Assembly (NCBI GenBank): GCA_951812955.1
Contig: OX638340.1
Span: 512,001-576,000 of the forward strand
DNA length: 64,000 nucleotides
DNA from: an uncultured Gemmatimonadota bacterium
GTDB lineage: Bacteria; JAAXHH01
Direction: 5' to 3'
Position 1 is the stretch's first letter. Each line of letters starts with the position of its first letter. Shown in pieces: positions 1 to 63,225 of the stretch. The notes below the pieces were generated by a model that made no database searches, was not told the DNA's origin, and saw only the letters and a list, made by a program, of their open reading frames with translations. The translations under genes and the position numbers were made by a program.

Positions 1-67
1 AATTCTGTACTTTTTTAAACGGTTTCGCCTATATTGTAAACCGCTTAAAAGAAAAACGCCATCCATA

Positions 68-7984: not shown

Positions 7985-8001
7985 GTCAGCGGATTTAACA
8001 G

Positions 8002-8074
8002 GCCACGATAGCTCAGCTGGTAGAGCAATTCATTCGTAATGAATAGGTCGTCGGTTCGAGTCCGACTCGTGGCT
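8002..8074 (+). tRNA. tRNA-Thr (anticodon CGT)
   Basis: Hand-folded. Acceptor stem GCCACGA/TCGTGGC (all Watson-Crick pairs), D-arm GCTC-AGCTGGTA-GAGC, anticodon stem ATTCA/TGAAT with loop TTCGTAA, T-arm GTCGG-TTCGAGT-CCGAC. Confidence 0.85.
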
Positions 8075-8270
8075 TTCTTCCGCAGTCTGGTTCCCATAAA
8101 GATCACCTCGCATCATCCGTCTTCCCGGCAAAAAGACGTTCGAAGTCTTCGAACGATCCGCTCTGCCGTACCGGACGAGCCACAGTACCCGGTAAACAGA
8201 CTCCGTAAAACCTAACCAACCTCTTTCCTTCTTTCGTGAGAAGGATTTAGGGGTTTTCTCTATGCGGTAC

Positions 8271-9014
8271 CTACGATTTCTCTCTGTCCTGTTCGGCCCT
8301 GGCCTTTGACAGTGCCGACGCGATTATTCCCGATGGAATCGCAATGACACCTAATCCGATCATCAGGAGGATGAATGTGAAAATCCTTCCCCCTCCGGTC
8401 ACCGGATATGTATCGCCGTAACCCACGGTAGTCAATGTTACAACCGCCCACCACAGTCCATCCAGCACCGAACCGAATTTACCTGGCTGTACGGCGCTTT
8501 CAAAATACCAGATTCCCGCCGCCGCCAGGTAAATCAGTATCACGGACAGGACTGCGAACATTATGATTTCTTCCTTCACGATGACGACGGCTCGCTGTAA
8601 TCGATCTACCGCCTGGTTGTATCTGAACAGTCTGATAATCCTGAAGATACGCAATACACGAACGACGCGAAGTATTCGGCCGTCGACGTAACCAAAGCCG
8701 ATCAACATTAGGTAAAATGGCAGGATAGCTAACAGATCTATGATTCCATAGAAACTAAAAACATATTGCGTTCTGTTGTATGCAACAAAGCATCGCAAGC
8801 AGTATTCGAATGTGAATAACACGACGGTAATGGTTTCCACTAAATGGAGGAAAGACTGAGTCTGGCCGGTTATACCAGGGATTGTTCTTAACGTAAATGT
8901 GATCAGAGATAACAAGATCATGCCAAGTATGAAATCGTCAAACGTACGGCCCTGCCATGAGTCTCGACGTTCGACCACATGCCTGATTCGTTCAATGTAT
9001 GTTGTCTGGTTCAT
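8271..9014 (-). CDS. Voltage-gated potassium channel (6TM ion_trans family, KvAP-like)
   Basis: Selectivity filter TLTTVGYGD. S4 voltage sensor with Arg at every third position (RVVRVLRIFRIIRLFRY). GGAGGGAAGG Shine-Dalgarno sequence. Confidence 0.85.
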   Translation of the reverse strand: MNQTTYIERIRHVVERRDSWQGRTFDDFILGMILLSLITFTLRTIPGITGQTQSFLHLVETITVVLFTFEYCLRCFVAYNRTQYVFSFYGIIDLLAILPFYLMLIGFGYVDGRILRVVRVLRIFRIIRLFRYNQAVDRLQRAVVIVKEEIIMFAVLSVILIYLAAAGIWYFESAVQPGKFGSVLDGLWWAVVTLTTVGYGDTYPVTGGGRIFTFILLMIGLGVIAIPSGIIASALSKARAEQDREKS

Positions 9015-15100: not shown

Positions 15101-15478
15101 CCAGTATTCGTCCAGGAAGATCCCCATGTACACGCCAACGGGCCGGCCTTCAAGCTTCGCCGGCGGAATCTGCGCGTCTTCCAGCGCTTCCCAGGCAAGT
15201 TCGAGCAGGACGCGCTGCTGGGGATCGATGTGGCGGGCTTCCCGTGGCGAGATATTGAAAAACGCTGCGTCGAATCGGTCGATCTCGTCGACGAACCCGC
15301 CATGGGCGGGATAGTCTTTATGGCCCGTCCACGGTTCCCACAGCGATTTGCGCTCATCCGGCACGGCGCGTATGGCGTCACCGCCGTTCAGGACGAATTC
15401 CCAGAAAGATCGGGGCGAAGATATCTCCCCGGGAAAACGGCAGGCGATACCTGTTATGGCAATGGGTTCACCGGACAT
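9191..15478 (-). CDS. Type I polyketide synthase, single fully reducing module KS-AT-DH-ER-KR-ACP, no thioesterase or reductase release domain
   Basis: KS: IAITGIACRFPG, DTACSSS, HGTGT. AT: GHSVGE. DH: HPLIGTGIESSV...P. ER: MDR-type GGVGLAALQLA. KR: LVTGGAGGIGRFLTGWL. ACP: LGVDSLMAVELRN. The start overlaps the preceding gene by 11 nt. Confidence 0.9.
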   Translation of the reverse strand: MSGEPIAITGIACRFPGEISSPRSFWEFVLNGGDAIRAVPDERKSLWEPWTGHKDYPAHGGFVDEIDRFDAAFFNISPREARHIDPQQRVLLELAWEALEDAQIPPAKLEGRPVGVYMGIFLDEYWDLQRYAAPSAVGMHTNTGGTLSIAANRISYFLDLKGPSIAVDTACSSSLTAVHLACRDIQAGICSAALAGGANLLLTPQTTRGFQQAQMLSPDGRCRAFDQGASGYGRSDGAGIVVLKRLSDAVEDDDPIYAVILGSAINQDGRGQEGRGLTVPDQNAQQTVIESAARAGGVDAQRLAFVEAHGTGTPTGDPVEAMAIGRATGSTGCLIGSVKTNIGHAEAAAGVAGLIKTALSLKHGVLPPSLHFDQPNPDIPFEALGLKVVTEPENIPVSCYAGVNSFGFGGANAHVVLGSPPGPAEVESGGSPGTSDPCRTDDQRATRLLVLSAHNAAALKQKASDTVSLLRSQPDTPPDDLAAALALYRSHLDHRLGLVFEEAGGAAQGLETFRAGGIPDRFETARVGSHPTPVVFVFTGMGPQWFGMGRALYNSAPPFSEALDEFDRLYSAAAGNSIKDEMWRGAAGERITGVEIAQPANMALQWALAALWRSFGIEPRFVIGHSVGEITGACVAGALSLEEGVRIIYQRSRLQKAWQGRGEMLAVGLSPDEAEEAIEPFGDSLSVAAVNSPVSVTISGETAAIDRLQAELDGRRIFCRKLHTDIAYHSRQMDGIRDDFLASLNGLSPSKSHVPLFSTVTGTRVEGMDLDADHWWRNIRSPVLFSRSFEAIPDGGEALFVQIGPHPVLSTIIYENLAHLNWTGHAVASLRRDRGTWDVLLEAMAKCYVHGHDIRWQHLVDPPRTPVPLPTYPWQKERFWLDGMTNQPGGPRSQYPHPLIGTGIESSVDPETFVWERPISLDSHPMLADHTVLDRSIMPLAGQIEMLFETLDEEDAPVAFRDLELLNPLLLPDIGAHLVQVVRRQNRYTLSSRPESQETGSSWLSNMLAERTRVDEITERVELEAVRSRCDRRVASGRFYERAAALGFQYGPSFRQIDELVYSEREVLAVLAVRDDDQNPYRLHPGVLDAGLQVLLMLVPEDDPHLPVSVETVVLQKLPDEHDVLVAYARLREKSSDGGLLADVYLVDDKGLPVVQLEGVSLFRAGGGLFRTGAGRHGLDNPQGIYREAWMAMPIPEDQVEPGTTSHWYVITEDPRLGTGLANALARRGGKSEFIDASSECKASPADALAGRLGSVRSESGEPVGVVGIWTGKGARRSNRHTGPALESFEMVRAVLDSPDLSYRLRLITAGAQSVVDGDRSKPELGTIWGCGRVAAQEHPELNCAMIDLPAGTDEIDLEHLACIVAADKLTGEIAVRETELYTRRLVPLDLSNTKAKRVSASSYFNTSYRLTQSTPGSIDDLHFVSEREREPAPDEVVIRMQATALNFRDVLTALGMLRASLPRPPSFGWECVGEVVARGSRTDSVEVGDLVMGMVPMAMAGYVTAKAALVVRKPDSLGIEEAATLPVAFLTAYLGLVVRGGISAGDRVLVHNATGGVGLAALQLARQAEAEVFATAGSDEKRAFLREIGVSHVMDSRSLDFAEEIIEKTDGKGMDIVLNTLSGPAMMASLAVLAPHGRFIEIGKTDVLNHGLIDLNRFDRNKSYHPIDLAQFIEEQPDRAGAMLQKIADLAADGSIRPLPYHAYPLAEARDAFRFMSQARHMGKLVLVDDGASVPVALGEDDPIIRPGGTYLVTGGAGGIGRFLTGWLLDRGAGLVVVTGRRHHVDTSLESDPNGKVKYVQADATERDAMEGLLAGLEIEHGPVRGVFHGAGVLDDGILLTQNAERFRRVLEPKTVGAWNLHAITRDRELDLFVLFSSVASLLGTAGQASYAAANAFLDGLADLRSQEGLPVTTVNWGPWEDTGMMTDERAVDRMRRQGLRSIPPDEAGALLDRILRRDVHRVGVIPTTEPKADTLLARFLPPDVRGAQATRAIPPLSKADLSALSPDIMRDYIEEFVTDAISRILEVDPGSVETGQTWRSLGVDSLMAVELRNRIEAGLHVSIPVETLQSETAISQTIDTLLEGLNPRAVAEC

Positions 15479-29909: not shown

Positions 29910-30674
29910 CTACCTCCCGATACGCCTCGATATGGAATCGACAAAATCCGCTAGATTGACCATGCAGTGTGCAACAATACCGGGACGGACGCTGCGCGAA
30001 TGGATCGTTGTGTAGATGAGCGGCAGGATACCCAACGTGCGGACCGGAATCATCCATGGGGCGTCAAAATGGTATATGGAGAAAAGTAAGCTGTGTATGG
30101 CGGGCTTCAGGCGGCCGAACTGGCCTGGCATTCTTGGGAGCAGATACCCGCGGAAATAAAGCTCTTCAGTTATGGGTACGAGCATGCCGGTGAGCACGAT
30201 ATTTGCTATCAGAACGATTCCTGTGACGTCCGAAATCCCTATCATCTGGTACTTAGCGAAGACGCTGAATCCTACTAGATTTTCAAGCCGGTGGGTGATC
30301 GGCTCAAACGCTACGAAGATAATTGCGGTTGGTACCAGGATCGTGGGAACCCAAATGAAATAGCGGAAACCGGAGACTGGCTGATTGTATACAACGATGC
30401 CTTCAAGCGACCACCCGGGGTTGTGCCGCTTCTTGGCCAGGTAGTAGAGGTAGCCCAGCTGCATGGGAATCAGCACGAATACGTTTGACAATACGCCGAT
30501 TAATAGCTCCGGCGGTAACGACGGGTTCCATAGCGTCGCAAATCCCAGCAAGGTCGCCGCTACGTTTGCGATGCCGGGAGCAAAATGGAGGAATAGACAC
30601 TTCCCGAGAGAATGAGGTTTAATAGCCGAACCGGTCGGACCTTCTTCGGTGCGGTTTGACGCAAGTGCATTCAT
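29910..30674 (-). CDS. CPBP-family intramembrane metalloprotease (CAAX protease / Abi family)
   Basis: TEELYFRGYLLP (EExxxR motif) and FSIYH motifs in a polytopic membrane protein. Confidence 0.75.
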   Translation of the reverse strand: MNALASNRTEEGPTGSAIKPHSLGKCLFLHFAPGIANVAATLLGFATLWNPSLPPELLIGVLSNVFVLIPMQLGYLYYLAKKRHNPGWSLEGIVVYNQPVSGFRYFIWVPTILVPTAIIFVAFEPITHRLENLVGFSVFAKYQMIGISDVTGIVLIANIVLTGMLVPITEELYFRGYLLPRMPGQFGRLKPAIHSLLFSIYHFDAPWMIPVRTLGILPLIYTTIHSRSVRPGIVAHCMVNLADFVDSISRRIGR

Positions 30675-42745: not shown

Positions 42746-43618
42746 TTAGAACGCATAGCGCAACGATGCCCTGAATCCCTGCCCATTGAGCATTGCCCTG
42801 GTTTCGACGAGGTCTATCTTTAGCGGTTCGCGTCTACCGTCTTTCCAGACGACCTCACCTGTGGCTCGTCCGGTCTCCGCAATCCCCCAATCCACGTATC
42901 GCCAGGCAAGATCAAGCGTGATTTTGTCCGAAAGAGACGTAGCCACGCCAGACGTCAGCATCACGGCGAGATCAACGTTCCGGCCATCGGGAACGATGGT
43001 CTCCGTATTAGGAAACGTCATGCGGAAGTTACTGATATCGACATAGTGCAGCCCAGCGCCGCTTCCCGCGAACATGCGAAATGGACCGTATTCAGAAAGA
43101 TCCATGTACGCGGCGACCATGCCGGACATGGACCACAGGTCCGCCGATACGGGTTGGTCCGCGCTAGTCTGGACAAAATTAGCGCTACCTTCGAATGTAA
43201 AACGAGGGCGGTAGGCTATGGACGTTTCCAGTCGCAGTTTCGGCGTTACCAAGAAGCCAAGGCCGACTTCGACACCGGCTGTCGATCCGAAATCACCCTG
43301 CGTGCCCAGCGTGGTGCCGTTGTTCCCCTTGCCACAGCCGTAGAGCGCCGCAGGAGACTTGCTCAAGCAGTCCGCGTCCCCGAACCTGGTTTTCGAGGAC
43401 AGATCGAGGTTTACTCCGGCTCGAAGGTAGAAAGGATTTTGGGGTGGGGTGAGGCCGGATGCGGGCTGTGCAGAATCGATCTGGCCTGAACTGGCTCCTT
43501 CTGAGCCAGAGACCGCACTCGCTTGAACACCTGCCGGATTGAGATACATGGTGGCTATGATTGAAGCCAGGGTAATGGCCGTTCTGATCCCTATAACTGT
43601 CATGCGGTCGCTGGTCAT
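42746..43618 (-). CDS. Outer-membrane beta-barrel protein (OmpA-like / porin family)
   Basis: Signal peptide, alternating hydrophobic beta-strand pattern and a C-terminal ...LRYAF ending in an aromatic residue. Confidence 0.7.
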   Translation of the reverse strand: MTSDRMTVIGIRTAITLASIIATMYLNPAGVQASAVSGSEGASSGQIDSAQPASGLTPPQNPFYLRAGVNLDLSSKTRFGDADCLSKSPAALYGCGKGNNGTTLGTQGDFGSTAGVEVGLGFLVTPKLRLETSIAYRPRFTFEGSANFVQTSADQPVSADLWSMSGMVAAYMDLSEYGPFRMFAGSGAGLHYVDISNFRMTFPNTETIVPDGRNVDLAVMLTSGVATSLSDKITLDLAWRYVDWGIAETGRATGEVVWKDGRREPLKIDLVETRAMLNGQGFRASLRYAF

Positions 43619-43803
43619 GTTCGTCTCTCGTTACGGTTCGATGTGGAGTGCTTGATTCTCGTCCAGATGGTTCGACGATAAAACCTCCGTGCGAAAATAG
43701 ACAAACTCCAAGCGAAAGTAGACAACCTTCCAGCGCAATCGTGGCTCGCCCACCGGATCGCGCTCACAATCCAACCAGATGTCACCCGTACTTAATCGTG
43801 AAT

Positions 43804-44649
43804 TCAATCGATTTCGATCAGAATCCGACAGTGATCGCTTGAACCCCACTCATCGGGTTCGTTCATCGCCTGAGTACGTACACTATGGTGGAATCCCCGT
43901 GAAGCGAATACGTAGTCGAGCTGATTTACGGCGTTTTCTGGCATTCTCGCACGTGGCGCGTAATATGTGGGTGTATTCTTCGTATCTTCAGGTAGTCCAT
44001 ACGGAATGGGATCGGTCCTTCTGCCATCCGGATATCGAGGTCCCACAAACTCTAGACCCAGGGCGTCCATTCGTTCGAAAACAGTACGGTCGCGATCAGG
44101 CAGCACCAGTTTCGTGTCTTTAGACCCGAAAACGGTGTTCAGGTCTCCTGCCGCCAGGATCCGATGGGTGCTTGAATCTAGATCTCCAATAAAAGCTGAG
44201 ATATCAGAGATGATCCGATGTGTCGACGCGTCTGAGTATCCGGCCCACCATTTCGAGTCAACCGAAGCGTGCGGTCTTAACCAACGCGCATACATGGATA
44301 CAGCGATAAAAGGCTCCTGATCGCGGGGAATCACCCGGGCGGCCGCGATGGTACCGATGTCGCTGACGACCATCTCGTCGGGGCCGGTTGCTTTGTATTG
44401 AGGGAGAACTCGCCTGAACCGCTCAACCATGACTCGGTCGGATAGCTTGACGATTATTGGCCAGCGATCGAAATCATCCAGGTCGCTCCACTGGTCGCCG
44501 GTTGTTTTGGTTCCGGTGTCGAGACGCGTGCGCAGATCTGGAGGCACTTTACCAGCCTCTTGAATCAGAGCGACGTCCGCGTTCATCTCAAGTAGTTCGT
44601 CCCACGGTGCTCTTCTCCTTGCGATATTCCAACTGACAACAGTTGTCAT
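43804..44649 (-). CDS. Endonuclease/exonuclease/phosphatase (EEP) family protein
   Basis: N-terminal VVSWNIARRR, DVALIQEAG and a C-terminal SDHCRILIEID motif typical of the EEP fold. Confidence 0.75.
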   Translation of the reverse strand: MTTVVSWNIARRRAPWDELLEMNADVALIQEAGKVPPDLRTRLDTGTKTTGDQWSDLDDFDRWPIIVKLSDRVMVERFRRVLPQYKATGPDEMVVSDIGTIAAARVIPRDQEPFIAVSMYARWLRPHASVDSKWWAGYSDASTHRIISDISAFIGDLDSSTHRILAAGDLNTVFGSKDTKLVLPDRDRTVFERMDALGLEFVGPRYPDGRRTDPIPYGLPEDTKNTPTYYAPRARMPENAVNQLDYVFASRGFHHSVRTQAMNEPDEWGSSDHCRILIEID

Positions 44650-45752: not shown

Positions 45753-47480
45753 TTACTTCTTCTGGATCTTCGCCCAGGTATCGCGCAGGGCGATGGTGCG
45801 GTTGAATACTGGTCCGGTCTGGCCGGTCTGGCCGTACTCTGGCGCAGCCCGGTCGATTGCCGGTCCATCGGACTGCGTTTCGTCGGCATCGATGCAGAAG
45901 TACCCAAGTCGCTCGAACTGGTAATTCACACCGGGTACAGCTTCGGCCAGTCCGGGTTCGACCTTGCAGTCCGTGACGGTCTTGAGCGAGTCCGGATTGA
46001 GTAAGGATCGTTCATCGTCCACTTCACCCGGACGGGGATCCGGATCGCTGAAGAGCCGGTCATAGAGCCGCACGGTCGCGTTCAGGGCGTGGGCGGCCGA
46101 AACCCAGTGTATGGTGCCGCGTACCCGTCTCCCGTCGGGCGTGCTTCCACCTCTGGATTCCGGATCGTAAGTGCAGTGCAGCTCGACAATGTTTCCCTGG
46201 TCATCCTTAATCACGTCCGTACAGGTAATGTAGTACCCGTAACGCAGCCTGACTTCCCGTCCCGGACCGAGCCGGAAAAACTTCCGCGGCGGATCTTCCA
46301 TGAAGTCGTTCCGCTCGATGTAGATCTCGCGAGAAAACGGGACTTCCCGTGTCCCCATTCCCTCGTCTTCCGGGTTGTTCACGGCTTCCATGTGCTCGGT
46401 CTGGTCGGCGGGATAATTGGTGATCACGACCTTCAGGGGATCCAGCACGCCCATGACGCGTGGTGCGCGCTTGTTCAGGTCTTCCCGGATGATGAAATCC
46501 GACAGGGCCATGTCTATGAGATTGTGGTTCTTGGCCACGCCGACACGGTCGCAGAGGGTTCGTATCGAATCGGGCGTATATCCACGTCGCCGCAAGCCGG
46601 ACAGTGTGGGCATGCGGGGATCGTCCCACCCGGAAAGCACGCCTTCCTCGATCAGGGGCCGGTAGAAGCGCTTTGACAGCACGGTGTGCGCCAGTACCAG
46701 CGGCGCAAACTCGATCTGCTGGGGATGGTAGACATCCAGCCGGTCCAAAATCCAGTCGTAGAGCGGCCGGTTGTTTTCGAATTCCAGCGTGCAGAGCGAA
46801 TGGGTGATGCCCTCGATGGAATCCGACAGGCAGTGGGTGAAATCATACATGGGATATACACACCACTTGTCCCCGGTGCGGTAATGATGGGCGTGCCGTA
46901 TCCGGTACAGCACGGGGTCGCGCATCGTCAGGTTCGGATGGCCCATGTCAATCCGGGCCCTGAGGACATGGGTGCCGTCCGGAAACTCCCCGGCCTGCAT
47001 GCGCTGGAACAGTTCCCTGTTCTCATCTCCCGGCCGGTCGCGGTACGGACTGTCCCGGCCCGGTTCCGTGGGTGTGCCGCGATAGTCCCGCATCTCGTCC
47101 CAGGTCAGGCTGTCGACGTAGGCGTCACCCTGGTCGATGAGCTGAAGCGCGTAACCGTACAGCTGATCGTAGTAATCGGAGGCGAAGTATAGCCGGTCTT
47201 CCCAGTCGAACCCCAGCCACTTGATGTCCCGCTTGATCCCCTCGACATAATTCGCGTCTTCTTTCTCGGGATTCGAGTCGTCAAACCGGAGATTGCACAG
47301 GCCGCCGTACTCCTCGGCCACCCCGAAATTCAGGCAGATCGACTTCGCGTGACCGATATGGAGATAGCCGTTCGGTTCCGGGGGAAAACGGGTCATCACC
47401 TTGCCCCCGAACTTGCCGCTTTCCATGTCCGCGTCGATGATCTCGCGTATGAAGTCCCTATACTGCTTTTCTTCGCTCAT
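45753..47480 (-). CDS. glnS: Glutamine--tRNA ligase
   Basis: [24 protein letters not shown] is near-identical to E. coli GlnRS. VLSKR (KMSKS-type) motif and C-terminal anticodon-binding beta-barrels. Start placed at the ATG at 47480 (MSEEKQ) with AGGAAGG. Confidence 0.9.
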
Positions 47481-47607
47481 AGCCTTCCTGTTCAGGTTAC
47501 TTTTTGGAGCAGAATAAAGACCGAATAATATAGATCGTCGAGGGGGAAAGGGCAAGGTTTAGAGCAGGGGAGAATGTCCATGCGTTGCCTTAAACAGTTT
47601 TTACGAT

Positions 47608-49014
47608 TTACTGCTTGATGAGTGGCTGATACAGTTCAATGAGTCCGGCTATGTGACTGATTGTGTTCCTTGAGATAGAATTATCCTCGTAGTGGTTGAC
47701 AAGTCGTAATATCTCTTCGATCCTTCTGTCGTCTGGTCTGCCCGTTCTGCTAGAGATGTTATCCAAAGGAGGACCAAGCGCCCCTTTTTCTTCGGACTCA
47801 AAATAACGACGCAGTTCGTATACAGAAACACTCATAGTACCTTTTACATCTGCGTTTTGCATCTTACGATCGGTTAAGTAAACAAATGTCTCTAACTCAT
47901 TAAGATTGTTATTTTGGGTGTCATTCAGATCAAAATTGGCAATTAATTCGTCAATGCGGTTCATTAACTCATACCCTTTTTTATCCCCTCGAACGAATGC
48001 GCGATAAAGCGATGGGTCATGTAACCGTAGCGTAACAAGCAAACTCAGTATAACTGCTCGAAGTGGTTCCCCCTCTTCTATGGATGCTCTTACAAAGGCG
48101 ATTGACCTAATGCATTGTTCGATATCACGAAGTGAAAAACCAAAACAACTGCAGAGAATTGGAAAAAACTCGCGGAACCAATCAGAATCCAATGAATGGT
48201 CTTTGAAAAACCTATCCAACAAATAACGATTAACTAAATGCCTACAATAGGCTTCCGGGTCGATTTCAGGTAAAGTAAACGTAAAATCAAAAAACCGTCT
48301 CAAGTAAACATCTGAATCGATTTTACCATAAACAGACTGGAATGATTTGCATAACTCATCTCGATTGATTCCAAAAATGAAAACCAAACCTGGTATCTCA
48401 AATATGTGTTTAACCCGTTCCAAGAGTTCTATCGCAAAAGTAGGTCTACAACGGTCAAGTTCATCAACAATAAAAACCAGAGGATGCTTGGTTTCTTCCC
48501 TTACTTGAGTAGCAAGTTTTTCGAGATGTTTTCTTAAATCATCACGTTTTTTAACAAGGCTTTCATATCTGCCAAGTACATTGGGGGAGAATAGCCTTCC
48601 CAAGTCCCATCCAGTCGTCCCCTTAACCACAGTGAGCAACCCTGATATCAATCGTCCCCCGTGTTTCTGAATCAGCTTAATTGCACAATTGTATTTACTA
48701 TCATTCACTTGATCTGTCAGTTGTCCAAGAATCGAAGCTAAGGGGTCATCGCCAAAGTCATCATTCCACGCGTTTATATAGACACTTTCAAATCCTCGGT
48801 TTTGAAGATCTTTCTGCCATCGCTTGAGAAAGAACGTCTTACCCGTTCCCCAATCTCCATGTAAACTTACGATAAGGGATGGTCTTTGGGCCTGAACAAG
48901 ATTCGTCAATGTATTCGCAACTTCGGCTCTGCTCATTACATCATCTATCCAGGGGTCCTGTACGTTAATCACAGGTTCTGGGACCTTTAGGATTTTTCTG
49001 TTATCTTCGTACAA
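47608..49014 (-). CDS. KAP-family P-loop NTPase
   Basis: Walker A LHGDWGTGKTFFLKRW and Walker B region FIVDELDRCRP (the DxxDRC hallmark of KAP NTPases). The whole gene is markedly AT-rich relative to its neighbours. The start is TTG at 49014, or an internal ATG 26 codons downstream. Confidence 0.75.
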   Translation of the reverse strand: MYEDNRKILKVPEPVINVQDPWIDDVMSRAEVANTLTNLVQAQRPSLIVSLHGDWGTGKTFFLKRWQKDLQNRGFESVYINAWNDDFGDDPLASILGQLTDQVNDSKYNCAIKLIQKHGGRLISGLLTVVKGTTGWDLGRLFSPNVLGRYESLVKKRDDLRKHLEKLATQVREETKHPLVFIVDELDRCRPTFAIELLERVKHIFEIPGLVFIFGINRDELCKSFQSVYGKIDSDVYLRRFFDFTFTLPEIDPEAYCRHLVNRYLLDRFFKDHSLDSDWFREFFPILCSCFGFSLRDIEQCIRSIAFVRASIEEGEPLRAVILSLLVTLRLHDPSLYRAFVRGDKKGYELMNRIDELIANFDLNDTQNNNLNELETFVYLTDRKMQNADVKGTMSVSVYELRRYFESEEKGALGPPLDNISSRTGRPDDRRIEEILRLVNHYEDNSISRNTISHIAGLIELYQPLIKQ

Positions 49015-49236
49015 TGAGTCGACCTTTCATTCTGATGATCATGGGTATTGGTTATATCCGACGTTATCGTATTCCTTACTTAGAGGCTTCAAAATCAACA
49101 ACATAGCCTAGATTGAGGCATTCGTCTTGGAACGGATATTTGAGGATAAGTTCATGGATTTATACACTGAATCGGTATGCATACAAATCGCATTTGAAAC
49201 ATGCAAAGCTATCCTACACTAGTCACGTCCGTTTCA

Positions 49237-50388
49237 TCACAGCCCAACCGTACATGCGTGTTCAAGCCCAACCACTTCCACGCGGTCGTGAATCCGGAAT
49301 CGCGATTCGCCGGGGAAAACGACGACTAGCCGGTCTAGTTTCAGGTCGGACAACGCCGTGTGCATGGAACGCGTCATCGAAGGCGCGCTGGATCGCTTGA
49401 ACTCGAACCCGGTTCTTCGACCGCCTTCCATGATCAGAAGATCGAGTTCCGACCCGCGATGGGTAGCCCAGAAATAACAGTCCTCCCAGGAAGCGCCCGC
49501 AATTCGGACCACCTCCTGCATGGCGAAACCCTCCCACGAAGCACCGGATTTTGGATGCCCCATGAGATCTGCCTCGTCCTTCACACCCAACAGCGCGTGT
49601 AACAGCCCGGAGTCCGAAAGATACACCTTGGAGGCTTTGACCTGACGTTTCTTAAGATTCTCGTACCATGGTTGCATCCTGCGCGCTACCAATGCGTCGA
49701 CGAGGGTGTCGAGGTATGAATTTACCGTTGGTGCGGTGACGCCAAGTGCGCGGCCGAGTTCGGCTCCATTCCAGTGATTCCCGTGGTAGTGGGCCAACAT
49801 GGTCCAGAATCGACGCATGGATGCGGCGGGAACAGAAATACCGAGCTGCGGCAGATCTCTTTCGAGGAAAGATCGAATGAACGCCGTCCGCCAGGTAAGG
49901 CTGTTCTCGTCGTTCTGGGCAAGGAACGAAGGAGGGAATCCGCCGCGCAACCAGAGTCGGTCCGTTTCAGCCGTACCCGTTTCGTTGATCCGTAGCGGCG
50001 GTAGTTCATAGTATGCGATCCTCCCGGCGAGCGATTCTGAAGACTGGCGAAGTAGTACGGGTCCCGCACTGCCCAGGACCAGAAAACGGGCCGGTGTACC
50101 TGGACGGTCCGAGAGCACACGAAGCAGGCGGAAAAGTCCTTCGTTTCGTTGGATCTCATCGATTACGACCAACCCGCGCAGCGGTTCCAACGCGAGCTTG
50201 GGATCAGACAGTCGCGTCTCGTCGGTCGGGTCTTCAAGATCGAAGAAGGTGACGGGACGCGCTTCGCCCTCTATCAGTTGGCGCGCGAGCGTGGTCTTTC
50301 CAACCTGCCGTGCCCCGATAAGACAGACCACGGGAAACTGGTTTAACAGTTCGCGAATTGCGGTGAGATGTTGGGTCCGTGGGATCAT
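49237..50388 (-). CDS. AAA+ superfamily ATPase of the COG1373 type (AAA_14 plus DUF4143)
   Basis: Walker A VCLIGARQVGKTTL, Walker B VVIDEIQ and a C-terminal DUF4143-like region. Start at ATG 50388; the track uses TTG at 50397. Confidence 0.7.
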   Translation of the reverse strand: MIPRTQHLTAIRELLNQFPVVCLIGARQVGKTTLARQLIEGEARPVTFFDLEDPTDETRLSDPKLALEPLRGLVVIDEIQRNEGLFRLLRVLSDRPGTPARFLVLGSAGPVLLRQSSESLAGRIAYYELPPLRINETGTAETDRLWLRGGFPPSFLAQNDENSLTWRTAFIRSFLERDLPQLGISVPAASMRRFWTMLAHYHGNHWNGAELGRALGVTAPTVNSYLDTLVDALVARRMQPWYENLKKRQVKASKVYLSDSGLLHALLGVKDEADLMGHPKSGASWEGFAMQEVVRIAGASWEDCYFWATHRGSELDLLIMEGGRRTGFEFKRSSAPSMTRSMHTALSDLKLDRLVVVFPGESRFRIHDRVEVVGLEHACTVGL

Positions 50389-50421
50389 ACGGGACAATAT
50401 ATGTGAAAATCGAAAGCGGCG

Positions 50422-51267
50422 CTATTGATTTTCTACATTAGTCCTCGCCCACGCGGCGAAATGTGGCGGAACGACCACGGGGCGCTTCGACGCTTCGATT
50501 TCCTCTCGAACGCGCTGTGGTATGGTATCTACGTCCACTTCTTCCGCGGTGGCAATTCCGTAATGCTCCAGGAGCGGAACAACGCTTCGGAAGGAATTCG
50601 CCACGTAGGAGTAACCCGGCCAGTCGGAGGCGGCGCCGACCAGCAGTCCGGCATCGAGCGTGGGTTCGGGCAGGCCGGCCTCGGTGAAAACCCGGTACAG
50701 TTCCAGCCCCATGGTGGCATTGGCACCGGACCGTTCGAATACCTCGACGATCCAGTCGCCGAGTTGTCCCATGAGCGGTGTGTCGGGGTGCTTATAGGTC
50801 TCTGTAATGGTGAAATCGATCTCCTGGAACATGACAATACCGCCGGGACGTACCTGGTTTAACAATTGCTTCAACGCCGTAACCGGATCGGGAAGGTACA
50901 TGAGCACCAGGCGGCCGACCAGGGCATCGAACCGGTCTCCAAGGTCCATGGTTTGTACGTCGCCGGCAAGGAACGCCACGTTTTCGTATCCCACCTCCTG
51001 GACGCGCGTCCGGGCGATCTCGAGTATATCGGGATTCATATCCACGCCCACCACTTGCCCTTCGGGCCCCACCAGTTCCGCCGCGATCAACGACACGTCG
51101 CCGGCGCCGCTACCGATGTCCAGTACTCGCATGCCTTCACTGATACCGGCCGATGTCAGAAACCGTCTCGTGATCGGCTCGAAAAGGCGTGACTGTTCGA
51201 TCAGGCGTTCCGTCTCTTCATCACTGCGTCCCATGGTATATTTCCGCTGGCTGTTTTGATCCGTCAT
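50422..51267 (-). CDS. Class I SAM-dependent methyltransferase
   Basis: Motif I VLDIGSGAGDVS and post-I acidic residue (VGVDMNPD). Confidence 0.85.
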   Translation of the reverse strand: MTDQNSQRKYTMGRSDEETERLIEQSRLFEPITRRFLTSAGISEGMRVLDIGSGAGDVSLIAAELVGPEGQVVGVDMNPDILEIARTRVQEVGYENVAFLAGDVQTMDLGDRFDALVGRLVLMYLPDPVTALKQLLNQVRPGGIVMFQEIDFTITETYKHPDTPLMGQLGDWIVEVFERSGANATMGLELYRVFTEAGLPEPTLDAGLLVGAASDWPGYSYVANSFRSVVPLLEHYGIATAEEVDVDTIPQRVREEIEASKRPVVVPPHFAAWARTNVENQ

Positions 51268-59309: not shown

Positions 59310-59372
59310 TCCGGACTATCTCGGTCCAGTTAGATCGAGCACGGTCATGTACAACATCCTTTGAGGAGTAAG

Positions 59373-60839
59373 ATGAACGAAAATGGTATGAACACCTGTC
59401 CCCTGTTTATCGATGGCAGCTGGACCGACGCGGGCGACGTAGCGACGGAACCGGTATTTAACCCATCGGACGGCAGCGTCATCGCGAGAACGCCCATGTG
59501 CGGCGAAACCGAGGTCGATTCGGCGGTCCGGGCAGCCCGTGCGGCCTTGCCCGATTGGTCCGCGACCCCGGTCGTTGACCGTGCGCGGATTCTCTTCCGT
59601 TACGTGCATCTGCTAGAAGAGAACTTCGAAGCGCTGTCCCGCCTGGTAACGCGTGAGCATGGCAAGACCCTGGTAGAAGCCCGGGGTTCGGTGCGCCGCG
59701 GTATCGAAGTCGTGGAATTCGCCTGCGGTGCGCCTACCCTGCTGATGGGCGATTCGCTCGAGCAGATCGCCAGCGGGATCGATTGCGACACCATACGCCA
59801 GCCCGTGGGGGTCTGCGCGGGGATCACCCCTTTCAACTTCCCCGCCATGGTGCCCATGTGGATGTATCCCATCGCCATCGTCTGTGGGAACACCTTCGTA
59901 CTCAAGCCTTCCGAAAAAGTACCCCTCACCGCCATACGGCTCGTGGAACTGCTCCATGAAGCCGGCCTGCCGTCCGGGGTGATGAACCTGGTCCACGGCG
60001 GCGTGGACGTGGTAAACGCCCTGTGCACGCACCCGGATATCGACGCCGTCTCCTTCGTCGGTTCTTCCCCCGTGGCGAGGCACGTCTACCAGACCGCAAC
60101 CGCCCATGGCAAGCGCGTGCAGTCGGCCGGAGGCGCCAAGAACTACATGATTATCCTGCCCGACGCGGACCCTGCCTTCACGGTGGATGCCCTGATCGGC
60201 TCGGTATACGGTTGCGCCGGGGAGCGATGCATGGCCGGCAGTGTGGCCGTGGCCGTGGAGGAAGCGGCGCAGCGCGTGCTGCCTCCGCTGCGCGAAGCGC
60301 TGGATGAAATGAAGGTAGGACCGACGGACCGGGAACCGGCGGCGGACATGGGGCCGGTCGTCACCCGCCAGCACCTCGACAAGGTGCATGGTTATATCGC
60401 TTCGGGCCTGGCGGACGGCGCCTCGCTTTACCGGGACGGCCGCGGTGTTGAAGTACCGCAAACACCGGAAGGCTTCTACCTGGGTCCCACGATATTCGAT
60501 GATGCCGCCACCAGCATGAAAATCGTCCGGGAGGAGATTTTCGGTCCGGTGCTTTCCGTGATTCGCACCGACAGCCTTGACAAGGGCATCGAAGCCTGCA
60601 ATCAGAGCGGATTCGGCAATGCCGCGGTCCTTTTCACGGGCGACGGGAAGGCTGCCAGGACGTTCAGAAACCGGGTCAGCGCCGGGATGGTGGGCATTAA
60701 CGTCGGCGTCCCGGCGCCCATGGCGTTCTTCCCCTTCACGGGCTGGAACGGCTCGTTCTACGGCGACCTGCACATGCAGGGCAAGGAAGGTTTCGCTTTC
60801 TATACCCGTCAGAAAGTCACCATGAGCCGGTGGGCGTGA
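59373..60839 (+). CDS. mmsA: CoA-acylating methylmalonate-semialdehyde dehydrogenase-like aldehyde dehydrogenase
   Basis: ITPFNFPAMVPMWMYPIAIVCGNTFVLKPSEKVP closely matches MmsA/IolA. Catalytic Cys in GERCMA. ATG at 59373 preceded by GAGGAG. The track starts at an upstream TTG. Confidence 0.8.
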   Translation: MNENGMNTCPLFIDGSWTDAGDVATEPVFNPSDGSVIARTPMCGETEVDSAVRAARAALPDWSATPVVDRARILFRYVHLLEENFEALSRLVTREHGKTLVEARGSVRRGIEVVEFACGAPTLLMGDSLEQIASGIDCDTIRQPVGVCAGITPFNFPAMVPMWMYPIAIVCGNTFVLKPSEKVPLTAIRLVELLHEAGLPSGVMNLVHGGVDVVNALCTHPDIDAVSFVGSSPVARHVYQTATAHGKRVQSAGGAKNYMIILPDADPAFTVDALIGSVYGCAGERCMAGSVAVAVEEAAQRVLPPLREALDEMKVGPTDREPAADMGPVVTRQHLDKVHGYIASGLADGASLYRDGRGVEVPQTPEGFYLGPTIFDDAATSMKIVREEIFGPVLSVIRTDSLDKGIEACNQSGFGNAAVLFTGDGKAARTFRNRVSAGMVGINVGVPAPMAFFPFTGWNGSFYGDLHMQGKEGFAFYTRQKVTMSRWA

Positions 60840-60888
60840 GCGCGGCCTAAAGCATTAACGCGGCCATAACCAAATGAGGGATGAAAGC

Positions 60889-61971
60889 ATGTCCAAACCC
60901 GATGTCTACATTTTGAAAACCCAATTGGACGGCGAAGATGCGTTGAACGACGCCGCCTTCGCCACCCCGGCCCGAGAGATGCTGCGCGCGCTGGACATCG
61001 ATCCCGGAAACCGCGCCGTGATGATGAAGCCCAATGTCACGGCGGGAGCGCCGCGCAACAGTGGAATCGTTACGCATCCGGCCTTCGTGGGCGGTATGGT
61101 CGACTACTTTGTCGAGGAAGCGGGTGTGCCGCACGAACGTCTCTACGTCGGCGAAGCGACAAGCCGGCTGACTTCGAAGACGCAACGCGACCTGAGTTGG
61201 GCCCGGAGCGGCTACACGGAGATGGCGCGCGAGAAGCGCGTGCGGCTGCTCGAACTGGCGGACTATGGCAACGTGCGCGTGATGCCGGGCGGCACGGTAC
61301 AGCTCCACAACATCGGGATCTCCCGTTGGGCGGCATCGGAAAACGTGTTCTACATCAACGTTCCCAAACTGAAGACCCACAACCTGGGCGTGGTCACCCT
61401 GTGCGGCAAGAACCAGCAGGGCATCATGATACCGGTCACGGAACGGCACCTGTGCTCGGATGCGTGGCGCGCCACATTCGGACGGGACGACAAGAGAAAG
61501 CAGGGACGGGAATGGATGCGCGAGGAGGACCACGAGGCGTGGCAGCGGACCATTGCGCACATGCACTGGGACGTCTTCCTGGCGTGCCGGCCCGATTTCA
61601 ACCTGGTGGAGGGCATCGTGGGACGAGACGGCAACGCCTTCTACCAGGGCCGCAACTTTCCCACAGGTCTCGCTGTCGCCGGTGAATCCATGGCCGCGGT
61701 GGATCTGGTGGCGGCCCATCTCATGGACTTCGAGCCGCCGAACCTGGTCTATCTTCAGGTCGGGATCGAACGGGGACTTTGTCCGCCCTCGATCGGCGAC
61801 GTGAATGTACATCTCGTCCGGAACGGCGAGGTGGCCGGATTGACCGATGCGGATCGATTCAAGGCCGATCCTCCCTTCGAAGTATACCGCGATATCCCAG
61901 CTGACTACGCCAAAAAAGACCTGTTCGACGAGTACGATCCGAACGCCGAGGACTTTCAGATCACGGCCTGA
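60889..61971 (+). CDS. DUF362 domain protein
   Basis: KPNVTAG, INVPKLKTHNLGVVTLCGKNQQG and GIVGRDGNAF segments match the DUF362 consensus from memory. ATG at 60889 with GAGGGA upstream. Confidence 0.65.
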   Translation: MSKPDVYILKTQLDGEDALNDAAFATPAREMLRALDIDPGNRAVMMKPNVTAGAPRNSGIVTHPAFVGGMVDYFVEEAGVPHERLYVGEATSRLTSKTQRDLSWARSGYTEMAREKRVRLLELADYGNVRVMPGGTVQLHNIGISRWAASENVFYINVPKLKTHNLGVVTLCGKNQQGIMIPVTERHLCSDAWRATFGRDDKRKQGREWMREEDHEAWQRTIAHMHWDVFLACRPDFNLVEGIVGRDGNAFYQGRNFPTGLAVAGESMAAVDLVAAHLMDFEPPNLVYLQVGIERGLCPPSIGDVNVHLVRNGEVAGLTDADRFKADPPFEVYRDIPADYAKKDLFDEYDPNAEDFQITA

Positions 61972-62040: not shown

Positions 62041-63225
62041 ATGACACAGGAAGTGGTGGATCCCCTCTACGCCGCTTTGATGTCACCCGGAACGCGTGAC
62101 TATACCCACGGGTTCCTGCCCCCAGAGGATCCGCTTCCCCGCCTGCCCGAGCTTTTCGAGGAATGGGAACAGACCGGCGACGTGTTGCCCAAGCTGGCCC
62201 TGACGCGGCATATCCGCCCCGCGATAGAGGATCTGCCTTCATTCGCGGTCGACCGGCTGGATACCCTCGCAGAGCATGAACGGGCCATGAGTCTGCTGTC
62301 CTTCTTGGCCAACATGTACGTTTTCGCCCCAGATCATCCGGTGGCCACGGCGATCCCCCGGAACCTGGCTCTGGCCTGGCACGGCGTGGCCTGCCGCCTC
62401 GGACGTCCTCCCATGCTGACCTACGCCTCCCAGGTCATGTACAATTGGCGAAGGTTCGACAAGCAAGGCCCCGTCGAAGTCGGCAATCTGCGCATGTTGC
62501 TTAATTTCCTCGGCGGCATGGACGAAGAATGGTTCGTCACCATACACGTGCACATCGAGGCCGTCGCGGGCCGCGCGCTCTCCTTGCTGATCCCCGGCCA
62601 GGAAGCGGTGTTGCGGGGCGAATCGGAAACGATCGCACATTGCCTGGATGCCGTGGCCGAAACGCTACGCGAAATGCGGTCGATCCTGGAGCGGATGACG
62701 GAACGGTGTGATCCGAATACGTACTATCACCGGGTCAGGCCGTACATGTTCGGCTGGAAGAACAACCCTGAATTGCCCGAAGGCATGGTGTATTCGGGCG
62801 TGGAAGCCTACGGCGGCATGCCTCAACAGTTCCGCGGCGAAACCGGGGCGCAGAGCGCGGTCATTTACGCGGTGGACGGGTTTCTCGGTATAGACCACGG
62901 GTACGACGAAATGCGGGCGTACCTGATGGAAATGCGCGACTACATGCCCGTTCAGGACCGCCATTTCATCGAAACGGTGGAAGGCGGACCGTCCGCCAGG
63001 GCGCACGTCCTGGACCGGAAGTCCGACCTGCCGGGGCTGCGGAAATCCTACAACGAAGCCGTGGAAGCCCTTTACGAATTCCGCCGGCTGCACATCGAGT
63101 ACGCTGCGATGTACGTGCTCAAGCCGGGACAAAAGGAATCCAAGGGCCACGTCGGCACCGGCGGCACGCCATTCACGGTATATTTAAAGAAGCACATCGA
63201 CGAAACCCTGGCCCACCGTATCTAG
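62041..63225 (+). CDS. Indoleamine 2,3-dioxygenase (IDO) family haem protein
   Basis: The C-terminal half aligns by eye to human IDO1. MRDYMPVQDRHF matches MRRYMPPAHRNF. RRLHIEYAAMYVL matches RSYHLQIVTKYIL (proximal His). GTGGTPFTVYLKK matches GTGGTDLMNFLKT. Also GETGAQSAVIYAVDGFLGI matches GGSAGQSSVFQCFDVLLGI. Confidence 0.8.
   Translation: MTQEVVDPLYAALMSPGTRDYTHGFLPPEDPLPRLPELFEEWEQTGDVLPKLALTRHIRPAIEDLPSFAVDRLDTLAEHERAMSLLSFLANMYVFAPDHPVATAIPRNLALAWHGVACRLGRPPMLTYASQVMYNWRRFDKQGPVEVGNLRMLLNFLGGMDEEWFVTIHVHIEAVAGRALSLLIPGQEAVLRGESETIAHCLDAVAETLREMRSILERMTERCDPNTYYHRVRPYMFGWKNNPELPEGMVYSGVEAYGGMPQQFRGETGAQSAVIYAVDGFLGIDHGYDEMRAYLMEMRDYMPVQDRHFIETVEGGPSARAHVLDRKSDLPGLRKSYNEAVEALYEFRRLHIEYAAMYVLKPGQKESKGHVGTGGTPFTVYLKKHIDETLAHRI

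Follow-up and report, generated by a model that had tools for sequence, protein, structure and literature searches.

On balance, our analyses slightly favor the view that the AT-rich gene described here encodes a stand-alone KAP NTPase of defense type (predicted family PDC-S20), which occupies a cargo slot shared across its lineage, is represented there by old, divergent and partly exchanged alleles and would work as a sensor-like switch. The gene is accessory yet old in this lineage. Some of its alleles were inherited vertically with their flanks and others were exchanged, and its AT-richness is a steady state. The window, that is, the whole stretch of 64,000 nucleotides that was analyzed, contains the following features at and around the gene:

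45753..47480, minus strand: glnS, glutaminyl-tRNA synthetase (Pfam tRNA-synt_1c, 1e-100; GC3 0.74)
47481..47556, minus strand: glnS promoter and leader, a promoter-like match with -35 TTGCCC at 47555..47550, a 17-nt spacer and -10 TATATT at 47532..47527
47557..47607, minus strand: spacer 3' of the KAP stop codon, marking the 3' end of the variable segment
47608..49014, minus strand: KAP-family P-loop NTPase gene, 468 aa, TTG start, soluble product, PADLOC candidate family PDC-S20
49015..49236, minus strand: upstream AT-rich region of KAP, 222 bp, low GC, within the variable segment
49237..50397, minus strand: AAA_14 + DUF4143 (COG1373-type) ATPase gene, PADLOC candidate family PDC-S01
50422..51267, minus strand: class I SAM-dependent methyltransferase gene (Pfam Methyltransf_31, 2e-28), native left-hand anchor of the slot

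The initial annotation had reported an AT-rich single-gene segment of about 1.7 kb at 47481-49236, and its composition and size hold. The variable segment proper measures 1.68 kb (~47557-49236), has a GC content of 0.41 against 0.60 elsewhere and contains one intact gene. It begins only at ~47557 because 47481-47556 is the native, conserved promoter and leader of glnS, and this part of the proposed segment does not belong to it. In 300-bp sliding windows, GC was 0.36-0.46 over ~47400-49300 and 0.57-0.63 in both flanks. The KAP ORF had a GC content of 0.408, compared with 0.599 +/- 0.025 for the other 1407-bp windows in the 64 kb (z = -7.6), the next-lowest of which reached 0.499. Its GC3 of 0.380 likewise stood apart from that of 46 other long ORFs (0.728 +/- 0.078, z = -4.5).

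At the glnS side, the promoter and leader block was kept in 10/10 related genomes and thus also where KAP is missing, in two of them. The true start of glnS is the ATG at 47480; the longer TTG start at 47555 in the ORF list was unsupported by homologues. The spacer 47557..47607 is not conserved among allele types, conservation beginning at ~47556 and running downstream from there, and no terminator-like site was found between KAP and glnS. The KAP TTG start aligned with an ATG, the start of the 82% identical allele in genome L001, and a database copy of the protein (P0001) starts 14 codons further downstream. At the other side, the region 49015..49236 presumably is KAP's own promoter and leader. 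It aligns over its length with the region upstream of the L001 allele, whereas the upstream regions of other allele types do not align with it; as it contains no match to a promoter-like consensus, we only infer its promoter role. The COG1373-type ATPase matched Pfam DUF4143 (7e-42), AAA_14 (2e-24) and PDC-S01 (1.8e-78), and its true start is likely the ATG at 50388. After the methyltransferase gene follows a conserved hairpin at ~50400-50433, with the same sequence at related loci.

Across ten genomes of the lineage, the interval between the methyltransferase gene, which is syntenic in all of them, and glnS, the native right-hand anchor with 88-96% identity, is a variable cargo slot. In eight of the ten slots a KAP allele immediately precedes the conserved glnS promoter; in the other two this place lacks KAP, which makes the gene accessory. 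Further cargo consists of higBA (TIGR02607 match, 2.6e-22), Fic and AAA_14 genes. KAP is the sole cargo gene in L003 and L005, and these two and the window lack higA, higB and Fic genes in the slot.

The neighboring COG1373-type ATPase had been considered a possible functional partner of KAP, and a two-gene system would be in agreement with several observations. In the window and in L001 the two genes are adjacent and have the same orientation, each matches a PADLOC candidate family, and in the unrelated genome L249 an AAA_14/DUF4143 gene again lies near a KAP gene, this one embedded in a type I restriction-modification (R-M) locus. Yet the two come and go independently in the slot, and the ATPase hence is not an obligate partner: four genomes have both, four have KAP without AAA_14 (L003, L005, L007, L252), one has AAA_14 without KAP (L008) and one has neither. 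L008 also answers the question whether glnS directly adjoins the AAA+ gene elsewhere, as it does so there. Moreover, a Fic gene is inserted between the two in L004 and L251, and in the window they are separated by the 222-bp AT-rich spacer. Their histories differ as well, the ATPase being 89-91% identical in the five of ten slots where it occurs, with dS like that of the flanks, against 41-82% for KAP. A two-gene system is thus most unlikely, and the proposed partnership did not find support.

The fixed place of KAP directly upstream of the glnS promoter in eight genomes, in the same orientation and with no terminator-like site in between, could also mean that KAP serves glnS in a housekeeping or regulatory capacity. 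However, the two relatives without KAP retain the same glnS promoter, and a KAP protein of 41% identity next to a glnS of 96% would be unexpected for a housekeeping partner. As the family outside this lineage is furthermore unlinked to glnS, we judge such a role extremely unlikely.

The segment had been described as an island without an integrase, in agreement with our search: 26 of the 47 long ORFs were scanned, among them all those from 32.0 to 63.9 kb, and none of the 26 contained an integrase domain. No tRNA genes lie within ~39 kb of the KAP segment; an Rfam scan gave two distant tRNAs only and no RNA element in the AT-rich spacers. Searches for direct repeats or attachment sites flanking the segment returned only short matches at chance level. 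With neither an integrase or recombinase among the scanned ORFs, nor a nearby tRNA, nor convincing repeats, an integrase-mediated genomic island is not supported. Homologous recombination in the conserved flanks may exchange the KAP alleles, and no integrase would be needed for this.

The alleles in the slot, all of them AT-rich, share 41-82% identity at one fixed position. In L007, the closest genome, glnS is 96% identical and KAP 41%; in L004, the values are 93% and 58%. Because KAP identity is only 41-58% where the flanks are 93-96% identical, we conclude that ancient alleles were swapped. In these divergent alleles, synonymous sites are saturated, while flank dS is 0.2-0.6. The 82% (L001) and 74% (L003) alleles behave differently, since their KAP dS to the window (0.60 and 1.04) is like that of the flanking housekeeping genes (0.63-1.02). 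Their dN/dS of 0.14-0.15 shows that the KAP gene is functional and under purifying selection. In a family tree with 121 members, all slot alleles fall inside one 20-tip subtree, in which 8/20 tips were verified in the slot.

From the low GC and the foreign codon usage, the initial annotation had deduced a recent horizontal acquisition, i.e., transfer of a single gene from a low-GC donor with no time for its composition to adjust. The strong GC and GC3 contrast fits such an event, and so do the absence of KAP from the slot in 2/10 relatives and the composition of relatives in other phyla, whose GC is also 7-13 points below that of their hosts. In contrast, the same slot is filled in 8/10 genomes, whose divergence reaches dS 0.2-1.0, and KAP dS equals flank dS in the pairs of the window with L001 and with L003. 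Polarized synonymous changes in KAP amounted to 63 AT→GC vs 58 GC→AT, where flank rates would predict 84 vs 27, and imply an equilibrium GC3 of 0.39, close to the current 0.37. Because these changes are balanced, the low GC of KAP is a steady state without drift toward host composition. With GC3 at equilibrium near 0.38, neither low GC nor codon usage dates the acquisition, and a recent transfer is very unlikely. Collections of viral contigs, phage genomes and plasmids contained only distant KAP relatives of at most 34% identity, another point against recent transfer; for the same reason, a phage or plasmid origin of KAP is unsupported.

Judged by its sequence, the KAP protein is a member of the predicted anti-phage family PDC-S20. 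Both the soluble KAP NTPase with its motifs and the link to a defense-associated family, as originally annotated, were confirmed. Pfam KAP_NTPase (PF07693) matched residues 29-379 (E 5e-39, 134.7 bits at a cut-off of 20). Walker A corresponds to G53-D-W-G-T-G-K-T60 and Walker B to F181IVDELDRC189 with D184-E-L-D-R-C189 at its core; both ATPase motifs are invariant among 50 family members. No transmembrane segment was found in the protein, the highest Kyte-Doolittle 19-residue mean being 1.14. Aravind et al. 2004 are said to have described transmembrane helices inserted within the P-loop domain as common, though not universal, among the KAP family. The protein studied here lacks such an insert, and in its model a soluble two-helix hairpin is found at that position. 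The PADLOC model for PDC-S20 (PDLC04959) was matched with E 3.6e-97 by residues 10-463 over model positions 4-460 of 464, and likewise by 8/8 other alleles and relatives tested (E 1e-102 to 1e-112). Homologues form a family of 2,561 clusters at 50% identity (E<=1e-30). An effector domain was not recognized in the protein.

Payne et al. proposed PDC-S20 as a one-gene candidate in their 'guilt-by-embedding' screen, which defined PDCs by their embedding in type I R-M, BREX or DISARM systems (bioRxiv 10.1101/2024.01.29.577857). Our literature search gave no mention of 'PDC-S20' and no defense phenotype reported under that name, nor did it yield, apart from this screen, a paper connecting KAP with hsdS or hsdM. 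The anti-phage role predicted for the family, this KAP included, we infer from association alone.

The AlphaFold2 model of the KAP protein (pLDDT 84, pTM 0.79) shows a helical hairpin inserted in the stretch from Walker A to Walker B (residues 106-176, with helices 106-133 and 144-175) and a C-terminal helical domain (residues 346-468). Among eight alleles, mean column identity was 0.67-0.80 in the cores but dropped to 0.38 for the hairpin and to 0.35 for the C-terminal domain. Positive selection on these variable surfaces is nevertheless not supported, because region-wise dN/dS reached a maximum of 0.30 and in no region exceeded 1, as calculated with pairwise methods that are too blunt for site-level selection. 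The nearest solved fold was that of RADAR RdrA (PDB 8fnu, 8fnt). Only the fold comparison gave this match, and a profile search of PDB sequences with KAP gave none; a library of viral structures returned generic AAA+ matches only, with low TM scores.

Outside the lineage, PDC-S20 members typically separate hsdM from hsdS in type I R-M operons. Four relatives with 42-44% identity were sampled from complete genomes, and each of them immediately precedes hsdS within a type I R-M locus. Three further relatives from metagenomes (37-42%) also have hsdS directly downstream, and two of the three have hsdM directly upstream as well. The metagenome scan, which gave mostly distant relatives and short contigs, was used for the count of hsd co-location; among control loci, 0/77 had hsd genes. 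Genes for AbiEii, Abi_2, GmrSD, DarT/macro and Schlafen proteins were found as cargo near the R-M-embedded KAPs.

This arrangement could mean that KAP is an accessory or guard of type I R-M, which might for example sense inhibition of the R-M enzyme by phage anti-restriction proteins, as PrrC does with EcoprrI, and would here act in trans with an R-M system encoded elsewhere. PrrC has been mentioned as a precedent for an R-M-embedded guard (bioRxiv 10.1101/2024.01.29.577857). The place of KAP immediately upstream of hsdS is invariant in seven relatives outside the lineage (L247-L250, L167, L169, L170). In the complete genomes, KAP stop and hsdS start overlap by 4 nt in three of four cases, hsdS beginning 4 nt past the stop in the fourth, and one outside relative overlaps hsdM, too. 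Within the lineage, L251 has split hsdM fragments ~1 kb past its glnS-DUF4432 pair. However, in 8/8 slot-bearing lineage genomes the gene stands without hsd genes and yet remains under purifying selection; no type I R-M (hsd) genes were found in the 64-kb window. Some relatives at 39-40% identity also lack adjacent hsdM or hsdS, with no hsd gene in L172 and a distant hsdS match only in L171. Furthermore, many unrelated stand-alone defenses are embedded in R-M operons, and embedding by itself hence implies no functional coupling (bioRxiv 10.1101/2024.01.29.577857). We therefore consider a guard function in this lineage unlikely.

Alternatively, KAP might be a selfish or addiction module, or else a toxic ATPase that persists for its own sake, with no anti-phage role, and the slot would be a sink for such elements. 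The slot also gathers the toxin-antitoxin genes higB/higA, and Fic, and defense by PDC-S20 is so far a prediction, with none reported in our literature search. But no antitoxin-like partner accompanies KAP, and the slots of L003, L005 and the window do without higA, higB and Fic altogether. Long vertical retention (dN/dS 0.15) and ancient allelic diversity fit better with host benefit and frequency-dependent selection, and the usual home of the family is inside R-M operons. A purely selfish element is thus quite unlikely.

Under the stand-alone defense reading, which we prefer, the KAP protein would act as an oligomeric switch that is driven by nucleotides, like RdrA, ORC and STAND proteins, with the conserved ATPase core as its engine. 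Its fast-evolving surfaces, i.e., the hairpin 106-176 and the C-terminal domain 346-468, might recognize a phage or foreign-DNA cue, the hairpin occupying the place where membrane KAPs have their transmembrane helices. After recognition, ATP binding and hydrolysis could halt infection, and effector candidates are ATP turnover itself or an action on a host or restriction-modification partner. The protein has no recognizable effector domain, no conserved partner gene in the lineage and no R-M within 64 kb, which counts against this reading.

We may further speculate, albeit tentatively and with more doubt than conviction, that the AT-richness of KAP is actively maintained and that these soluble sensor-ATPases began as R-M guards, here released to a fixed locus under balancing selection. 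Low GC could be maintained by selection, for instance if a defense ATPase that may be toxic has to be weakly expressed or silenced. Alternatively, the alleles may be too divergent to recombine internally and thus escape GC-biased gene conversion, which would keep GC high in all other parts of this genome (60% GC). In any case, the locus is a clean natural example of low GC and foreign codon usage without recent transfer: a GC3 near 0.38 was held through dS 0.6-1.0 inside a genome with GC3 of ~0.73. It cautions against dating islands by their composition and provides a test case for AT-rich defense genes. Our data also tie a large candidate family to a consistent genomic habit, typically between hsdM and hsdS, and identify a lineage in which KAP functions without R-M context, so that stand-alone defense and R-M guard can be compared directly in experiments. 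The allele series finally maps which protein parts vary, namely the hairpin insert and the C-terminal domain.

Several known systems share features with this KAP. Like RADAR RdrA, a ring-forming protein of phage defense, it combines a P-loop ATPase with additional helical parts, and the S. suis RdrA entry is itself labeled as a KAP NTPase domain protein. RdrA is, however, larger (~800 aa), has only 11-12% sequence identity to the KAP protein and works with the RdrB deaminase, and no RdrB-like gene lies beside any KAP allele here. A KAP-type NTPase core is also found in PifA of the F plasmid, which excludes T7 (PADLOC 2.7e-17), and in QatA of QatABCD (PADLOC 1.8e-11). In both cases the match is limited to the NTPase region. 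PifA has ~720 aa; QatA has ~630 aa, its NCBIfam model gave 48.7 bits at a cut-off of 600, and our gene has no qatBCD neighbors. Tmn is another single-gene P-loop NTPase defense, in which ATP turnover is part of the mechanism (PMC13001434). In contrast to our protein without transmembrane helices, Tmn belongs to the membrane proteins of the YobI family and acts via plasmolysis, and no Tmn model was among the PADLOC matches of the KAP protein.

In Enterococcus faecalis, KAP NTPases whose C-terminal regions are uncharacterized confer protection against phages that depends on Walker B (PMC13552941). EF_KAP and the other KAP defenses from Enterococcus and the gut (PLoS Biol 2026, PMC13552941) resemble the gene described here in being single genes that combine a KAP domain with an uncharacterized C-terminus. 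They differ in having transmembrane helices, a C-terminal region of ~320 aa and linked small serine recombinases, whereas this KAP is soluble, has a shorter helical C-terminus and no recombinase nearby. Both transmembrane helices and a long C-terminal region are present in the experimentally shown KAP defenses but absent from this KAP, which also stands against our preferred reading. With PDC-S20 itself, the protein shares a full-length HMM match, and its relatives there have the same size and the same single-domain architecture and are embedded in type I R-M. Unlike these relatives, the gene is not embedded in any defense system here or elsewhere in its lineage but stands by itself, at a fixed position beside glnS.

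The initial annotation had described an AT-rich island at 47481-49236 whose codon usage was unlike that of its surroundings and which encoded a KAP-family P-loop NTPase between glnS and a COG1373-type AAA+ gene. Both neighbours were found as described, and the three genes are located as follows.

47608..49014, minus strand: KAP ORF, 468 aa, Pfam KAP_NTPase 5e-39, 134.7 bits (cut-off 20)
49237..50397: AAA_14+DUF4143 gene (AAA14), PADLOC candidate PDC-S01, 1.8e-78
47480: true ATG of glnS; the mechanical ORF 45753-47555 starts 25 codons upstream of this conserved ATG

The compositional contrast is real. In 300-bp windows at about 47400-49300, GC is 0.36-0.46, against 0.57-0.63 in both flanks. The KAP ORF has a GC of 0.408 compared with 0.599 +/- 0.025 in the other 1407-bp windows of the 64 kb (z = -7.6), the lowest of which reaches 0.499, and its GC3 is 0.380 versus 0.728 +/- 0.078 in 46 other long ORFs (z = -4.5); GC1 and GC2 are likewise reduced. 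The proposed extent stands for the AT-rich segment itself, but not for its first 75 nucleotides or so. About 75 nt upstream of glnS are kept in 10/10 genomes, including both that lack KAP, and hold a promoter-like pair (-35 TTGCCC / -10 TATATT, window 47555..47527). Upstream of this block sequence conservation ends abruptly; the variable DNA therefore has its right edge at about 47556, and 47481-47556 is native sequence.

Elsewhere in the window, the second-lowest GC stretch (8001-9014, GC 0.47-0.48) contains tRNA-Thr(CGT) at 8001-8075 and directly after it an Ion_trans channel gene (8271-9014, minus strand), possibly a further acquisition, here at a tRNA site. A third dip (GC 0.50-0.53) coincides with a CAAX-protease/Rce1-like membrane protein gene (29910-30674, minus strand). 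Of native composition (GC 0.62) is a type I polyketide synthase encoded in a single 2095-aa ORF (9191-15478, minus strand) with the domain order KS-AT-DH-ER-KR-ACP (Pfam ketoacyl-synt 4e-86, Acyl_transf_1 1e-67, PS-DH, ADH_zinc_N, KR, PP-binding). A bacterial indoleamine 2,3-dioxygenase family gene (62041-63225, plus strand, Pfam 4e-96) is preceded on the same strand by genes for an aldehyde dehydrogenase (59361-60839) and a DUF362 protein (60874-61971).

The KAP assignment held, with Walker A GDWGTGKT at residues 53-60 and Walker B DELDRC at 184-189. As anticipated, the protein appears soluble: no membrane-spanning hydrophobic stretch was found, the maximum 19-residue Kyte-Doolittle mean being 1.14. 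Its TTG start lines up with the ATG of an 82% identical relative, and the annotated start of the public copy (P0001, 454 aa) lies 14 codons downstream of this homologue-supported TTG. The PADLOC search that had been proposed gave a full-length match to the single-gene phage-defence candidate PDC-S20 (PDLC04959, 3.6e-97); matches to PifA (2.7e-17) and QatA (1.8e-11) were partial and confined to the NTPase domain, and the NCBIfam QatA score, 48.7 bits, fell short of the threshold of 600. A profile search of PDB sequences gave no match. With 50 relatives as input, AlphaFold2 gave a confident model (pLDDT 84, pTM 0.79): a P-loop core, a long two-helix hairpin (H106-133, H144-175) as an insertion between the Walker A and Walker B motifs, and a C-terminal half consisting only of helices.

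The source genome belongs to a poorly sampled lineage: glnS at 88-96% identity occurs in only 3 of 185,579 species representatives, the next best reaching 66%. From species representatives and metagenome contigs, we compared ten versions of the interval between a methyltransferase gene (MT) and glnS.

Gene order in the methyltransferase-glnS interval of the window and of related-genome loci (L numbers); identities are relative to the window.
Window: MT-AAA14-KAP-glnS; reference
L001: MT-higA-AAA14-KAP-glnS; KAP 82%, glnS 88.5%
L003: MT-KAP-glnS; KAP 74%, glnS 88%
L004: MT-AAA14-Fic-KAP-glnS; KAP 58%, glnS 93%
L005: MT-KAP-glnS; KAP 47%, glnS 88%
L007: MT-higA-Fic-KAP-glnS; KAP 41%, glnS 96%
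L251: MT-AAA14-Fic-KAP-glnS; KAP about 41% (alignment-based estimate)
L252: MT-higB-higA-Fic-KAP-glnS; KAP about 44% (alignment-based estimate)
L008: MT-higB-higA-AAA14-glnS; no KAP, glnS 89%
L009: MT-higA-glnS; no KAP, glnS 88%

The differing gene content marks the interval as a variable cargo site for defence and toxin-antitoxin-type genes. KAP, where present (8/10), always adjoins glnS; no KAP remnant was detectable in L008 or L009, and in L008 glnS lies directly beside the AAA+ gene, an arrangement that the initial annotation had suggested looking for. That the COG1373 ATPase might be a functional partner was not sustained. AAA14 occurs independently of KAP, with Fic sometimes between the two, and its product is 89-91% identical in every genome having the gene, at flank-like dS. 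AAA14 is best regarded as another cargo gene in its own right, not as a partner of KAP.

Further cargo comprises higB-higA (HigA TIGR02607 2.6e-22) and a Fic adenylyltransferase-type gene in varied combinations (L007 4397-6279; L008 5864-6526; L009 7436-8000; L252/L253 3669-5908), and even the "empty" L009 interval retains a lone higA. A conserved DNA hairpin of the GTGAAAATC...GATTTTCAC type lies 3' of the MT stop (window about 50400-50433, L009 7436-7478 and equivalents); in L001 and L008 it stands after higA instead, so insertion of cargo has taken place on both of its sides. This hairpin may serve as a terminator, as a recombination landmark or in both ways. Past the glnS-DUF4432 pair the genomes differ as well, with split hsdM fragments (L251 11368-12858), a trypsin-like protease gene (L003 6109-6909) and an endonuclease/exonuclease/phosphatase-family gene (two copies in L001 7540-10398, one in the window 42746-44649).

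The divergence of the alleles speaks against the recent horizontal acquisition that had been read from the base composition and codon usage. KAP dS is at flank level for window-L001 (0.60; flanking genes 0.63-0.89) and window-L003 (1.04; 0.68-1.02), and dN/dS is 0.15 and 0.14, respectively. These three alleles were inherited together with their flanks under purifying selection. Window-L004 and window-L007 comparisons are saturated at KAP synonymous sites (pS 0.77-0.80), with a flank dS of only 0.2-0.6. KAP and flank identity are inversely related, the nearest genome carrying the most distant allele. A tree built from 121 members of the family places the interval's alleles in one 20-tip subtree, with the alleles of the window, L001, L003 and L004 forming a monophyletic group. 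The family protein P0065 shares 78% identity with the L007 allele, and the closest relative of the L005 allele not already placed in the interval is P0073 (54%); on look-up, both P0065 and P0073 lie in the same interval of further genomes. The simplest account is an old locus with ancient allelic lineages that are occasionally exchanged, probably by homologous recombination via the conserved flanks. In line with the initial annotation, which saw no integrase, no such domain was found in 26 long ORFs scanned, including all from 32.0 to 63.9 kb, and neither attachment-type repeats nor a nearby tRNA were found.

Low GC itself behaves as a steady state. All eight KAP alleles have a GC of 0.40-0.44 and a GC3 of 0.36-0.45; glnS GC3 is 0.76-0.83 in related genomes and 0.74 for the window ORF, and other cargo (higA, higB, Fic, AAA14) is intermediate (0.48-0.64). 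We counted majority-polarised third-position synonymous changes in the trio window/L001/L003; parsimony is crude at such divergence, and the flanks serve as internal control.

Third-position synonymous changes in KAP and in pooled flanks (glnS, DUF4432, MT).
AT→GC changes: KAP 63; flanks 79
GC→AT changes: KAP 58; flanks 209
Ancestral AT-ending sites: KAP 179; flanks 168
Ancestral GC-ending sites: KAP 105; flanks 813
AT→GC rate per site: KAP 0.35; flanks 0.47 (p = 0.03)
GC→AT rate per site: KAP 0.55; flanks 0.26 (p = 2e-9)

At flank rates, KAP would be expected to show 84 AT→GC versus 27 GC→AT changes. From its counts follows an equilibrium GC3 of 0.39, which matches the 0.37 observed today; the three flanking genes give 0.58-0.68. 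KAP substitutions are thus balanced near the present GC3, and the gene is not drifting toward host composition. The compositional contrast therefore does not date acquisition, and recent transfer is not supported. KAP relatives embedded in restriction-modification (R-M) loci are also AT-shifted, by 7-13 GC points under their surroundings, and the offset hence looks like a property of the family. One possibility is that it persists through selection for AT-rich sequence, e.g., to keep expression low or silenced. Alternatively, in line with the published gene-conversion hypothesis, the locus may escape GC-biased gene conversion, its alleles being too divergent for internal recombination. This stable disequilibrium, together with the ancient allele series, is the more interesting result.

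The family is large (16,942 50%-identity clusters at E<=1e-3; 2,561 at E<=1e-30), its best matches being mostly 450-510 aa long. All four relatives checked on megabase contigs (42-44% identity) lie inside type I R-M loci directly upstream of hsdS. In three of them the KAP stop and the hsdS start overlap by 4 nt; the fourth has hsdS beginning 4 nt past the KAP stop, and there the KAP start overlaps hsdM too. Surrounding cargo includes AbiEii, Abi_2, GmrSD, DarT/macro, Schlafen-type and PIN genes. Among metagenome relatives (37-42% identity), hsdS is directly 3' of KAP in L167, L169 and L170, and hsdM directly 5' in L169 and L170. Genes of the hsd type occurred in 0/77 control loci (1.0 Mb) and in 1/80 loci with distant viral KAP relatives. 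All these R-M-embedded and metagenome relatives match the same PDC-S20 model (1e-102 to 1e-112). In L249, from an unrelated genome, an AAA_14/DUF4143 gene (1-757, minus strand) is located a few kb away from a KAP gene inside an R-M locus, which may be coincidence, this family being common.

PADLOC candidates were put forward for testing, without validation, as genes genetically embedded in type I R-M, BREX or DISARM systems (Payne et al., bioRxiv 10.1101/2024.01.29.577857); PDC-S20 itself was not mentioned in the literature searched. The embedding of relatives reproduces this basis independently, and a defence role is argued chiefly from it. It also suggests the main rival explanation, in which KAP works together with a type I R-M complex or guards it; solo copies in this lineage, however, are selectively maintained, and we argue from them that KAP is at least able to function with no R-M system next to it. 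The window KAP is a new member of a predicted defence family in an unusual setting: solo, glnS-linked and allelically hypervariable. This family has been catalogued before, and well-defined experiments can be done at the locus.

In KAP the core of the ATPase is intact and strongly conserved; its Walker A, Walker B, NAWxxDF, ERVKH and RRFF motifs are invariant. Mean column identity among the alleles is 0.67-0.80 in the cores but drops to 0.38 across the hairpin insert and to 0.35 over the C-terminal 120 residues, where the variation is concentrated. The highest regional dN/dS values are 0.25-0.30 at the N-terminus, 0.17-0.23 in the hairpin and 0.17 at the C-terminal end, and 1 is exceeded in no KAP region. 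We found no nuclease, deaminase, protease or membrane domain in the protein and no conserved partner gene. KAP most likely works as an RdrA/ORC/STAND-type switch, oligomeric and nucleotide-dependent, in which the variable helical surfaces would recognise an invader-derived cue and the ATP cycle would trigger infection arrest. Direct experimental support for defence comes only from other KAP proteins: Enterococcus faecalis is protected by KAP NTPases whose C-terminal regions are uncharacterised, and this protection requires Walker B and the C-terminal region (PMC13552941). These proteins are membrane-anchored, in contrast to the window KAP with its lack of a membrane-spanning stretch.
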